Positions 55,527 through 61,889 of a stretch of DNA of 64,000 nucleotides are shown one piece after another. A model generated the notes under the pieces. It was not told where the DNA came from. It ran no database searches and saw nothing but the letters and a program-made list of their open reading frames with translations. Made by a program: the position numbers and the translations under genes. The stretch comes from Desulfomonilia bacterium (GTDB lineage Bacteria > Desulfobacterota > Desulfomonilia > UBA1062): the NCBI GenBank assembly GCA_049975365.1, contig JBNGDS010000004.1, positions 17,150 to 81,149 on the forward strand, written 5' to 3'. The stretch's first letter is position 1. The number at the start of each line of letters is the position of its first letter.

Positions 55527-55575
55527 CGATCAACAGGACGACACACAGAATCGATCGATCTCTGAACACGGTTCC

Positions 55576-55621
55576 TGAACAGATTTGTTGGATATCTGGC
55601 AGACCTGAACAAATTTGTTCA
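55576..55621. promoter_or_regulatory. Tandem palindromic sites (TGAACAGATTTGTTGG and perfect 16-bp palindrome TGAACAAATTTGTTCA) roughly 200 bp upstream of a sigma-54 promoter; candidate enhancer-binding-protein sites
   Basis: Sites at 55576-55591 and 55606-55621 (centre-to-centre 30 bp), plus a third CTGAACA half-site at 55562. A related site TTGAACAAGTTTGTGCAA is found upstream of amtB. Confidence 0.4.
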
Positions 55622-55815
55622 CTTCCCTCCATGGTGTTGAGACCCCCTTACCCGTGTACACACCAGGACAGAGTTTCTTCTGTCATATCCTGAGGAGGAT
55701 CCCAGAAATTTAGGGAATACAGGAAGTTAGGAATAAAATGTCATCCTTCCTCAGGTTCCTGATCAGCCAGAACAGGTGGAAAATTCATGCCCTTCAGGTC
55801 ACCGTGAACTGTTCC

Positions 55816-55831
55816 TGGCACATCAGTTGCT
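55816..55831 (+). promoter_or_regulatory. Sigma-54 (-24/-12) promoter TGGCAC-N5-TTGCT upstream of the AsnA-like gene
   Basis: Exact match to the TGGCAC-N5-TTGCW consensus at 55816-55831, about 75 nt upstream of the ATG at 55906. Confidence 0.55.
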
Positions 55832-55905
55832 TTTCAAAGGGGTCAGGGTGGAGGACTCTTTCGTGATCCTCTTTCCTGCTGAAACCACACAACAGGAGGT
55901 ACTCT

Positions 55906-57129
55906 ATGGGATTCATTGGCGAAGATCTGTTTCACTTTCAGGCAACACTGGTTCAATCAGGCATGAGCTTTGAAGAGTTTATAAGAGAAAACTACATAAA
56001 CAAGTGGGTGAACGATGAGATCTACCATGCCATGAGAATCCGTACAACCCTGGTTTCAGCCATACAGAATTACCTCGTCAATGAAGGCCTCGTGAATCTT
56101 GAGCGAATACAGATGAGCCCGGTGACCGACCCTCTGGCTCATGACGTCGAGCATGTACCCACGATTCACTACAAGGGCATGCCCTATGTAGCGACGCATT
56201 CCATGATCTACAGCAAGTTTCTCGCGTGCTTCAATCCCAGGATCAAGGGGATATTTGTGGATTCGCCGAACATACGACTGGAGATCGAGAGTCCCCAAAG
56301 GAAGCAACGGGGGAAATACCTCATTGATTTTTCCCAGATAGACATGGAAATCCGTCGCAATCGCGGCATCGGTATTGATGAATACAAGAACAAACCGGAA
56401 CAGGTGAAGGCGATCTTGGCGGAAGACATGGAAAAAGCCATCGATTTCTTCGAACGCATGATGGTGGCTGCACTACAGGCAATCCTCGAGGAGAATGAAG
56501 ATGAACTCAAGGCACTCGGGGTAGCACTCGAGCTTCCGGTGCAGCCGTTTCCCCGTATTCGGCACGACGAGGCGGTAAAGCTCTACGGGAAAGTGGATCT
56601 GGATGCCAAGGTCGGAGAGGAGATCTCCTCGCAGTTCTTCTGGATAACCGGCCTGATGCGGGAGAACTACGACCTCATCTACCCGTACATACTCCCCGAT
56701 GGATCAAAAATTCCGCTGTCATCATTCACGTCGGACATGGTCTACAATTACGATATCTGTGCCAAATCCATCATACGTAAGACCAACACCTATACGCCCG
56801 CTCTCGAGATTCTCTCGGGTGCCATACGGGAATGGCTCTATGAACCAATTGTTCAGAGACTGATCGACAACAAGATCATCCTGGAAGAGCCTGTGTTCAA
56901 GGACGGGGTCCTTGAAAACATCTCCAATCTTGACGGGTACGGCCCGTTCCTCACTGCTGTGAACATGAAGGACGCACATGGGCACCCTCTGTTCCCCGAG
57001 ACATTCGGCGCTGGTATCGGAGTCGAGCGGTCATTGTATGCGCTGCTCAAGGGACCGAAGATCGAAAAAATCGATGATGTGACCTGCTTCGGGAAGAACC
57101 CGGACTCATACCCGCTATTCCTGTTCTGA
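55906..57129 (+). CDS. Class-II aminoacyl-tRNA-synthetase-like catalytic-core protein (AsnA / aspartate-ammonia-ligase-like candidate)
   Basis: 407 aa. C-terminal FGAGIGVERSLYALL resembles class II motif 3 / AsnA GGGIGQSRL. No anticodon-binding domain. AGGAGG RBS. Confidence 0.45.
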   Translation: MGFIGEDLFHFQATLVQSGMSFEEFIRENYINKWVNDEIYHAMRIRTTLVSAIQNYLVNEGLVNLERIQMSPVTDPLAHDVEHVPTIHYKGMPYVATHSMIYSKFLACFNPRIKGIFVDSPNIRLEIESPQRKQRGKYLIDFSQIDMEIRRNRGIGIDEYKNKPEQVKAILAEDMEKAIDFFERMMVAALQAILEENEDELKALGVALELPVQPFPRIRHDEAVKLYGKVDLDAKVGEEISSQFFWITGLMRENYDLIYPYILPDGSKIPLSSFTSDMVYNYDICAKSIIRKTNTYTPALEILSGAIREWLYEPIVQRLIDNKIILEEPVFKDGVLENISNLDGYGPFLTAVNMKDAHGHPLFPETFGAGIGVERSLYALLKGPKIEKIDDVTCFGKNPDSYPLFLF

Positions 57130-57262
57130 CGAACTCTGTCAGGCCCCCTCCTGCGATGCGGCCCTTCCACACCCGCCCTGGGTGGAGGGGCCATTTTTTA
57201 CGCAGGGAGAGAACAGGGTATGTTCTCTTCACAGCTGCAGGTCACATCATCAGGGAAACCGA

Positions 57263-59782: not shown

Positions 59783-59783
59783 A

Positions 59784-60122
59784 TCAAATCGCGTCTTCAC
59801 CGGATTCCCCGGTCCGAATGCGAACGACGTCTTCAAGAGGGAGGATGAAAATCTTGCCGTCACCGATCTTTCCTGTCCTCGCTGTGTTCAGAATGATGTC
59901 AACCACACGGTCCACGATTTCGGATGCAACCACGATCTCTATCTTGATTTTCGGGATGAGATCCACCTCGTACTCGGCCCCGCGATAGATCTCCTTGTGT
60001 CCCTTCTGGCGGCCGAATCCTTTTACCTCCGTGATGGTCATGCCGGTTACTCCCAGGGACTGAAGTTCCTCCTTCACCTCTTCCAGCTTGAACGGCTTGA
60101 TGATTGCTTCTATTTTTTTCAT
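59784..60122 (-). CDS. glnK: Nitrogen regulatory protein P-II
   Basis: 112 aa with T-loop GFGRQKGH...YRGAEY (Tyr51 uridylylation site). Lies immediately downstream of amt. Confidence 0.9.
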
Positions 60123-60149
60123 GGAATCTTCTCCTTTTTTAAGCGGATC

Positions 60150-61355
60150 TTACCGGATCGAATAGCCTGTCTCGCCATGGAGACTCAGGTCGAGTCCCTG
60201 TACCTCATCATCTTCAGAAACCCTCAGCCCCATGGTGTGCTTGATGATCACCAGGATGACAGCCGTTACAACGGCGGAAAAAGCCATTGCGCTCAGGGCC
60301 CCGATGATCTGTATGAGGAATTGTTTCGGGTTTCCGAAAAACAGACCGGTTGCCCCTATGGAGGCAAACAGCCCTGTGGCGAGAGCCCCCCAGAGACCTC
60401 CCATACCATGGACTGCAACAACATCAAGGGAGTCGTCATAGCCGAGTTTTTCCTTCAGCAGGACACCGAGATAACAGAGTGTTCCGCCTACGAGCCCGAT
60501 TATGAGGGCAGAGAAGGGACCCACGAACCCGGCCCCTGGTGTGATGGCAACAAGACCAGCGACAGCACCACTGGCTGCTCCCAGGGTTGTAGGTTTTCCA
60601 CGGAGTATCCGTTCTGCCAGGGTCCATGACAGGGCTGCAGTCCCTGTTGCAATCTGAGTGGTGAAGAAGGCCAGTGTCGCAATTTCGTTTGAGGCAAGTG
60701 CGCTGCCCGCGTTGAATCCAAACCATCCAAACCAGAGCAGTGATGCACCAAGGACCGTTATGGGGAGGTTGTGGGGATACATGGCCTCAGCCTTGAATCC
60801 TTTGCGTCTTCCTACAATGAACGCTGCTACAAGTGCCGCAGTCCCCGAGTTGAGGTGAATGACCGTTCCTCCTGCAAAGTCCAGTGCTCCAAGCCTGCCG
60901 AGCCATCCCCCTCCCCAGACCCAGTGGCAGATAGGGAAATAGACAAATGTACTCCATGCGATAGTGAAGACAAGGAACGAGGAGAATTTCATGCGTTCTG
61001 CAAACGCTCCGGTGATGAGGGCAGGGGTAATGATGGCGAACATGAGCTGGAATGAACTGAAGAGCAGGTGAGGGATCTTGTCTGAATAGGGTCCGGGCTC
61101 GAGGCCCACACCTCTGAAGCCTGCCCACGAGAGTGATCCGATGATTCCCCAGATATCCCCTGAGAAAGAGAGAGAATACCCGTAGATCACCCAGATGACC
61201 GAGACCACGCCGAGACAGATAAAGCTCTGCATCATCGTGGCCAGGACGTTCTTTGAACGGACGAGCCCGCCATAGAAGAGTGCGAGACCGGGTGTCATGA
61301 GCATCACCAGGGCGGTTGCAACCAACATCCACGCTGTGTCACCAGGACTGATCAT
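60150..61355 (-). CDS. amtB: Ammonium transporter (Amt family)
   Basis: 401 aa with 11 TM segments and the conserved Amt signature regions. Confidence 0.9.
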   Translation of the reverse strand: MISPGDTAWMLVATALVMLMTPGLALFYGGLVRSKNVLATMMQSFICLGVVSVIWVIYGYSLSFSGDIWGIIGSLSWAGFRGVGLEPGPYSDKIPHLLFSSFQLMFAIITPALITGAFAERMKFSSFLVFTIAWSTFVYFPICHWVWGGGWLGRLGALDFAGGTVIHLNSGTAALVAAFIVGRRKGFKAEAMYPHNLPITVLGASLLWFGWFGFNAGSALASNEIATLAFFTTQIATGTAALSWTLAERILRGKPTTLGAASGAVAGLVAITPGAGFVGPFSALIIGLVGGTLCYLGVLLKEKLGYDDSLDVVAVHGMGGLWGALATGLFASIGATGLFFGNPKQFLIQIIGALSAMAFSAVVTAVILVIIKHTMGLRVSEDDEVQGLDLSLHGETGYSIR

Positions 61356-61390
61356 GATTCAAACCTCCGTATTCAGGATAGCCCTGCATG

Positions 61391-61406
61391 AGCACAGACA
61401 ATGCCA
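61391..61406 (-). promoter_or_regulatory. Sigma-54 promoter (TGGCAT-N6-TGCT on minus strand) upstream of amtB-glnK-glnD
   Basis: Minus-strand sequence TGGCATTGTCTGTGCT has GG and GC separated by 10 nt, as in the sigma-54 consensus. It lies 32 nt upstream of the amtB ATG. A palindrome-like site sits about 70 bp further upstream (61468-61485). Confidence 0.5.
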
Positions 61407-61889
61407 GCCTGAAATTTTGTTAACATGCTGATTTACTGAAGAAAATCTGCGCAGGAAATGTGTATGGTTGAACAAGTTTGTGCAACATGCCCTGCGAGGG
61501 AACAAAAATGAGGCATGCCCGGGCTCAGGATTATGCACTGTTCATACAAGCCCGAAGCGAGCACTCGATGAGTATCACAGAAGGATTCTCCCCAAAAGAC
61601 TCATCCTCTTCCTCTCGTTCAATCATCTGCCACGCGCATTGAACGGGTTGGCGTGCTGTTCCGGGATGTTCGTGTATCCGATCGCCTTCCCGATCATGGG
61701 AATGGAATGAATCGCAGCAGCCAAGGACGGGCATGGGAAAAGATACCTTGTGTTTATCGAAAAAATAGAGGATGATACATGTAAAGTACAATATTGTATC
61801 ATCCGAACAGAAAGATCAAGGAATAGTGCGGAAGATCAAGAAATGAACAGACGAATACGGAATTCAGTGATTCAGGTCAGAGGTCTCCG

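Follow-up and report, generated by a model that had tools for sequence, protein, structure and literature searches.

Which genes of a nitrogen gene cluster stand under a shared upstream palindrome, and which protein reads it, was the question raised by a 64,000-nucleotide stretch of a Desulfomonilia bacterium genome (assembly GCA_049975365.1, contig JBNGDS010000004.1, positions 17,150 to 81,149 of the forward strand; this whole stretch is called the window below). First-pass annotation had described two sigma-54 promoters in the window, one preceding an "AsnA-like" gene and the other the amtB-glnK-glnD genes, with a common dyad of the TGAACAA-N2-TTGTTCA type upstream of both. The sequences and coordinates quoted in it were all present and the sharing of the dyad was borne out by a comparison of 80 loci, but the number of units rose to three with the inclusion of purF, which had been overlooked together with a second amtB dyad (61499-61514) and the top-scoring dyad of the window (61785-61800). 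The window probably represents three sigma-54-dependent units of a single nitrogen-assimilation regulon, namely purF, a gene resembling asparaginyl-tRNA synthetase (AsnRS) and archaeal AsnA, and amtB-glnK-glnD, each preceded by one or two 16-bp dyads that would be read by a NifA-like activator (Table 1).

Promoters and dyads of the three units

The comparative set consisted of 80 loci fetched around homologues of the 407-aa product of the AsnRS-like gene. Homologues with 62-81% identity were present in Desulfomonilia, in metagenome-assembled genomes (MAGs) of other Thermodesulfobacteriota, and in Holophaga, Fibrobacterota and Planctomycetota. The promoter consensus used was TGGCAC-N5-TTGCW, with the GG and GC dinucleotides exactly 10 nt apart. 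In a pattern search it had one exact match in the window, at the AsnRS-like gene, whose transcription is predicted to start near 55841-55843, and 34 of the 55 closest loci kept an element of the TGGCAY-N5-TTGCT type 53-159 bp ahead of the orthologous gene. The amtB element is located 51 bp before the ATG (-51 to -61 in the relatives) with a predicted start near 61379-61381; a -24/-12 element was present at 15/17 amtB genes in the loci, in 14 cases together with dyads. Upstream of purF, elements of the TGGTAY/TGGCCC-N5-TTGCA type were found in 22 of 29 relatives, while purF dyads occurred in 16 of the 29 at -111 to -118 (about -113), often with a second dyad at -82 to -86; in the window the purF dyad is centred roughly 118 bp before the T of its -24 element. 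With a predicted start near 53986-53988 (+), the purF leader from the sigma-54-like promoter would be approximately 140-150 nt long (window 53977-54128), and a length of 146-187 nt recurs in many relatives. An Rfam scan of the window gave a single tRNA (47815-47886) as the sole match and no leader RNA in the long 5' region of purF.

Table 1. Coordinates of the nitrogen gene cluster in the window; promoter elements and dyads are predictions
Feature	Position	Strand	Sequence	Remarks
Dyad of purF (predicted activator site)	53835-53850		CGAACAATTTTGTTCC	core ACAATTTTGT; 126 bp before the element at 53961
Predicted sigma-54-type -24/-12 element of purF	53961-53976	+	TGGTACCAAGTTTGCT	1 mismatch to consensus
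purF (amidophosphoribosyltransferase)	54129-55526	+		TIGR01134, 506 bits vs cutoff 350; Pfam GATase_6/7 and Pribosyltran
Distal, weaker dyad of the AsnRS-like gene	55576-55591		TGAACAGATTTGTTGG	one G within the A/T spacer, right arm imperfect
Proximal, perfect dyad (palindrome) of the AsnRS-like gene	55606-55621		TGAACAAATTTGTTCA	30 bp downstream of the 55576 dyad
Predicted sigma-54 -24/-12 promoter of the AsnRS-like gene	55816-55831	+	TGGCACATCAGTTGCT	90 bp before the ATG at 55906
AsnRS-like gene	55906-57129	+		407 aa; AsnRS/AspRS-type class II catalytic core without anticodon-binding domain
Intrinsic-terminator-like hairpin after the AsnRS-like gene	57160-57200	+	CATTTTTT (T-run)	stem 57175-57191, followed by the T-run
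glnD (PII uridylyltransferase)	57263-59863	-		TIGR01693; Pfam GlnD_UR_UTase, HD, ACT
glnK (P-II protein)	59784-60122	-		Pfam P-II, 121 bits
amtB (ammonium transporter)	60150-61355	-		Pfam Ammonium_transp, 439 bits
Predicted sigma-54-type -24/-12 element of amtB-glnK-glnD	61391-61406	-	TGGCATTGTCTGTGCT	2 mismatches, GG and GC intact
Proximal dyad of amtB	61469-61484		TGAACAAGTTTGTGCA	centre -70 from the T of TGGC
Second dyad of amtB, weakest of the set	61499-61514		GGAACAAAAATGAGGC	right arm degenerate; matrix score 10.7; 30 bp from the 61469 dyad
Top-scoring dyad of the window	61785-61800		AGTACAATATTGTATC	-386 from the amtB -24 element; ~90 bp before the open reading frame at 61890

The dyad TGAACA-N4-TGTTCA with up to two mismatches had 8 matches in the window versus 3.2 expected, a number that was reached in none of 100 shuffles, and its strict core ACAWWWWTGT had 3 matches versus 0.48 expected, all of them within the 8-kb nitrogen gene cluster. 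The 16-mer proposed at first is present in the window but it was not conserved across the 80 loci, where conservation is confined to the 10-bp core ACA-W4-TGT; the GAACA...TGTTC flanks appear to be particular to the window genome. Within 300 bp upstream of the AsnRS-like promoters the core occurred at a density of 1.57 per kb, compared to 0.077 per kb over the 1.17 Mb of total locus sequence. The loci contained 96 strong sigma-54-like sites (about 22 in shuffles), and the core was found within 350 bp upstream of 49 of them, versus 1/96 within 350 bp downstream and 1/96 at -1050 to -700. Seen from the other side, 57 of the 90 core occurrences lay upstream of a strong sigma-54-like site, and the genes behind the dyad-bearing promoters were the AsnRS-like gene, amtB, purF, glnA and a few others.

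The dyads also kept fixed positions. Their centres clustered at -72, -84 and -113 from the T of TGGC (approximately -98, -110 and -139 from the predicted start): in most amtB loci the dyad was centred at -70 to -74 (proximal at about -72), while all 12 promoter-bearing glnA loci had two dyads, at about -85 and -115. The spacing between adjacent dyads was 29-31 bp in 36 of 49 pairs, and the two window pairs (55576/55606 and 61469/61499) are both 30 bp apart; the weak dyads at 55576 and 61499 are credible because this spacing to their partners fits the rule. The elements, their conservation and co-occurrence, the fixed positions, the three-turn spacing and the identities of the genes were all seen directly.

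The dyad and its probable activator

The motif, described at first as unusual, has the same core as the one published in 2015 for DVU1949 (PMC4641369). In that study, Kazakov et al. (BMC Genomics 16:919) predicted the sites of DVU1949, a one-component activator, in ten Desulfovibrionales genomes; the examples GTTACATTTTTGTAAT, TGAACAACATTGTCAA and TAGACAAAAATGTTAC have the core ACA-W4-TGT, and the predicted sites precede DVU1231-1233 (ammonium transporter, P-II and PII uridylyltransferase), a type III glutamine synthetase and glnA. Because these published sites have the same core, the window motif is not new and appears to be the Desulfomonilia version of a motif predicted in the sister order. 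Both regulons have in common a 16-bp dyad with the ACA-(A/T)4-TGT core upstream of sigma-54 promoters and an amtB site at about -72 (the DVU1231 dyad is centred approximately 72 bp before TGGC, with the published site at -159 and the promoter string at -81 both taken as first base). Their targets overlap in amtB-PII-glnD, with identical gene order, and in glutamine synthetases (glnA in the related loci), and both were assigned, by computation only, to a one-component activator and not to a response regulator. The flanks, in contrast, are TTT/AAA in Desulfovibrio, GA/TC in the window genome and variable in its relatives. Asparagine synthetase and purF are absent from the published D. vulgaris sigma-54 tables, and neither purF nor the AsnRS-like gene belongs to the DVU1949 regulon as published; the two would be the new predicted members of the regulon.

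A matrix trained on the 101 transcribed published sites alone (consensus TTTACAATATTGTAAA; training scores 9.4-21 bits) ranked the dyad at 61785-61800 first (13.2 bits) and the perfect dyad at 55606-55621 second (12.7 bits) in the window, both within the training range. A coincidental origin of the shared palindrome in A/T-rich intergenic DNA would be compatible with the handful of sites in one window, two of them weak, and with the counts for the published matrix, which were near the Markov expectation; it is nevertheless hardly credible in view of the 49 upstream versus 1 downstream occurrences, the conserved position and spacing, and the recurrence of the same targets across orders and phyla.

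The relatives encode a protein of approximately 505 aa with the GAF, Sigma54_activat and HTH_8 domains, scoring 510 bits to TIGR01817 nifA (cutoff 529). Its gene is divergent from the dyad-bearing amtB promoter in five loci (L005, L007, L016, L032 and L055), the position that is occupied in the window by a gene for a phosphoenolpyruvate-utilising-enzyme-like protein, and in L037 it points away from a different sigma-54-type element that has a dyad. Two Pirellulales loci have homologues with approximately 50% identity, likewise divergent from a sigma-54 promoter with a dyad; in one of these loci (L069) amtB-glnK follow, and the recognition helices of the homologues are similar (TTKRIIQYKV versus TTPRIIRYKV). 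Because this linkage recurs in two phyla, a NifA-like one-component protein (GAF, AAA+, Fis-type helix-turn-helix) is the most likely activator, as judged by gene neighbourhood, and an NtrB/NtrC two-component pair is less likely. The earlier suggestion of the dyad as the site of a nitrogen-responsive enhancer-binding protein of this lineage gained support from the 80 loci and from the independent published prediction, with a NifA-like GAF protein, not one of the NtrC type, as the probable activator.

The candidate shares with NifA its architecture (GAF, AAA+, HTH_8), and TGT/ACA half-sites and a nitrogen response, here a predicted one, are common to both systems. Compared to the NifA upstream activator sequence TGT-N10-ACA, the half-sites here are in reverse order and 4 bp apart rather than 10, and genes of ammonium assimilation take the place of nif genes as targets. 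The NifA sequence itself was not enriched either in the window (11 matches versus 13.6 expected) or in the loci (10 upstream versus 6 downstream). A link between the amtB-linked NifA-like protein and DVU1949 found no support in a comparison of the published 42-aa DNA-binding domains: its best match was DVU0569, whose predicted motif is different and belongs to the TGG-N16-CCA type. A protein-database search with the DVU1949 domain gave two fragments of 50-55 aa, and the contig of one fragment carried a stand-alone helix-turn-helix gene. The matches listed from a metagenome scan with an activator alignment were mostly generic AAA+ activators and add little; a few full-length relatives among them (L082, L085 and L095) had dyads just upstream of their gene. 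The L095 protein is a metagenomic relative with a DVU1949-like helix and has a strong dyad approximately 100 bp before its own start; therefore, both activator sub-types may belong to one NifA-like group.

A -24/-12 promoter opens only with the participation of an ATP-hydrolysing enhancer-binding protein. Dimers of a nitrogen-responsive activator would bind to the dyads, assemble into the active oligomer, loop the DNA to contact the sigma-54 RNA polymerase and drive the formation of the open complex, so that nitrogen limitation would turn on the uptake of ammonium, signalling through PII and the enzymes that use glutamine and ammonia. By analogy with known NifA proteins, the GAF domain may sense 2-oxoglutarate and/or PII. 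We infer from established knowledge of sigma-54 systems that the dyads are bound, that this leads to activation and which physiological signal is read; the choice of the candidate protein comes from gene neighbourhood.

In E. coli glnAp2 the paired NtrC sites are approximately three helical turns apart and centred near -110 and -140, and the geometry of the dyad pairs found here (about -110/-140, with a spacing of approximately 30 bp) resembles this arrangement. The two systems are also alike in the sigma-54 promoter, the nitrogen targets (glnA, amtB-glnK) and the Fis-type helix-turn-helix; they differ in the unrelated recognition sequence, in the likely activator, which here has a GAF and no receiver domain, and in the absence of linked ntrBC. 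The same promoters and dyads could be bound by an NtrC-type response regulator (receiver (REC), AAA+ and helix-turn-helix domains) phosphorylated by an NtrB-like kinase, in which case the NifA-like gene next to amtB would be another member of the regulon or a different regulator. In Proteobacteria, amtB and glnA are usually regulated by NtrC (PMC5343134), DNA-affinity-purified-chip (DAP-chip) data show binding of the D. vulgaris response regulator DVU3220 upstream of amtB as well, and L027 has a REC-type activator approximately 8 kb away. This arrangement is unlikely, nevertheless: no NtrB/NtrC pair was linked to the dyads in any locus, the GAF-type protein was the sole activator repeatedly adjoining dyad-bearing promoters, and this in two phyla, and the published study derived no motif for DVU3220. 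The enterobacterial NtrC motif is also not enriched, confirming the initial statement that the dyad is not such a site: TGCACC-N5-GGTGCA had 29 matches in the window versus 31 expected, none at promoters, and across the 96 promoters of the loci it was found upstream at 1 and downstream at 3.

Another possibility is that the dyad is bound by a protein other than the activator (a nitrogen-responsive repressor, a co-regulator or an architectural protein such as the integration host factor, IHF), with the true activator sites being located elsewhere or too degenerate. The A/T-rich centre of the dyad is like that of many bending or architectural sites, the top dyad of the window does not adjoin a sigma-54 promoter, and dual roles are known from Geobacter sulfurreducens, where GnfM acts from its sites as an activator and also as a repressor (PMC2995071). 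The GnfL/GnfM system is a master nitrogen regulator, and induction depends on two activator sites that were footprinted at about -128 to -89 (PMC2995071); both it and the system described here are sigma-54-based nitrogen regulons of related lineages, GnfM being a two-component response regulator. A non-activator is very unlikely as the owner of the dyad, since a sigma-54 promoter depends on an activator site upstream, and the dyad was the one conserved motif enriched there: every one of the most enriched 6-mers upstream of the promoters was part of the dyad, and a second motif did not emerge. The positions at about -98 to -140 and the three-turn pairs are activator-like, whereas IHF sites fall between enhancer and promoter, and the dyad is unlike the IHF consensus WATCAANNNNTTR. 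This consensus was not found between the window enhancers and promoters, except for one match with 1 mismatch near amtB. The latter, AATCAGCATGTTA at 61421-61433 on the minus strand, lies between the amtB promoter and the proximal dyad; it is weak and may be due to chance.

Several points weigh against control of the three units by a NifA-like activator. The dyads of the AsnRS-like gene are unusually distant (approximately -228 and -258 from the predicted start), the window dyads at 55576 and 61499 are both weak, and the amtB -12 element (GTGCT) and the purF -24 element (TGGTAC) depart from the consensus. The total number of window matches to the published-site matrix was not above the Markov expectation, because the flanks vary by lineage, and the locus set was built around one gene family, which makes the promoter sample less than genome-wide. 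There is no gene for an enhancer-binding protein within the 64-kb window, and the published assignment of DVU1949 is itself a purely computational prediction (PMC4641369). Among 36 D. vulgaris domains, the DNA-binding domain of the amtB-linked protein was nearer to that of DVU0569 than to that of DVU1949, and DVU1949 and the candidate may therefore be different proteins.

The AsnRS-like gene and its neighbours

The product of the "AsnA-like" gene had tRNA-synt_2 (PF00152) as its only Pfam match. Classical AsnA was rejected as its identity, PF03590 being unmatched in the same search, and the score to NF005054 "asparagine synthetase A" (PRK06462) was 131 bits, below the cutoff of 309. The best matches by sequence in the PDB were 1NNH and 3P8T, while the predicted fold matched 3REU, 3P8T and 1NNH with target-normalised TM values of 0.70-0.74 and 24-25% identity; after these archaeal AsnA structures, the next PDB matches were the catalytic domains of aspartyl-tRNA synthetase (AspRS) and AsnRS. 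The structure model had a pLDDT of 75 and a pTM of 0.78, with low confidence in residues 65-142. The protein, a putative enzyme, is an AsnRS/AspRS-type tRNA-synthetase core with archaeal asparagine synthetase A (AS-AR; 3P8T, 3REU, 1NNH) as its nearest match, and the initial name does not hold in the sense of classical AsnA. Both the window protein and AS-AR are class II Asp/Asn-type cores without an anticodon-binding domain; the former is longer (407 aa versus approximately 294) and has a helical N-terminal extension and insertions.

The gene travels with other genes of nitrogen metabolism. The order in Desulfomonilia is purF, the AsnRS-like gene and then the converging glnD-glnK-amtB operon, and in Pirellulales the gene is found near amtB-glnK. 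In Desulfobacteraceae-type loci it lies 40-460 bp directly 3' of glnA on the same strand (n=13: L054, L055, L061-L063, L065, L068, L070, L074 and L076-L079). In 11 of these 13 loci glnA is preceded by a sigma-54 promoter with dyads, as a rule two, further upstream, and the arrangement suggests that glnA and the AsnRS-like gene form an operon in Desulfobacteraceae-type genomes. Several MAGs had two AsnRS-like copies on separate contigs, including CTOTU18761 (L001, L029) and Zod_Metabat.965 (L006, L039), and the copies are therefore paralogues within genomes; the second copies were compared as L029, L039, L047, L048, L050, L051 and L055 versus L001, L006, L018, L043, L046, L002 and L049.

The regulatory code, i.e., the promoter with ACA-W4-TGT at fixed positions, can be used to find nitrogen-controlled genes in Desulfomonilia and in related uncultured Desulfobacterota. 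It extends a motif predicted until now in Desulfovibrio only to other orders and to Pirellulales, and it comes with a concrete, testable candidate activator. The unexpected regulon members are purF and a widespread, uncharacterised AsnRS-like enzyme travelling with glnA and amtB, whose function is now a testable question. As a tentative and rather doubtful generalization, a NifA-like GAF one-component activator reading ACA-W4-TGT might take over from NtrBC the overall control of ammonium assimilation in several phyla (Desulfobacterota, Planctomycetota, possibly others), with a conserved core regulon that includes an AsnRS-derived enzyme, encoded beside glnA, amtB or purF or in one operon with them, whose role may not be plain asparagine synthesis.

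The glnD reading frame and the amtB flank

The original amtB, P-II and GlnD gene calls agreed with both Pfam and NCBIfam. The glnD gene is interrupted by an in-frame TAG at 58094-58096 on the minus strand, splitting it into open reading frames of 589 and 265 aa. The stop codon aligns with a Trp in the AWN-x-W-K/R-A motif and, since this Trp was present in all 10 relatives checked, the TAG would stem either from a nonsense mutation of TGG or from a fault in the assembly; as a stop it would remove the ACT-domain C-terminus.

On the other side of amtB, the top-scoring dyad is part of a longer inverted repeat at 61770-61804 (GGATGATACA...TGTATCATCC). An open reading frame with the PPDK_N domain begins at 61890 and extends past the end of the window, and a search with the consensus pattern found no -24/-12 element between the dyad and this frame. 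The dyad may serve as a distal enhancer of amtB or may belong to the PPDK_N open reading frame. In another locus (L031, 11481-15317), two tandem amtB-glnK pairs adjoin the AsnRS-like gene, and each pair is preceded by a sigma-54-type element with two strong dyads of the TACAATATTGTA type located 30 bp apart.

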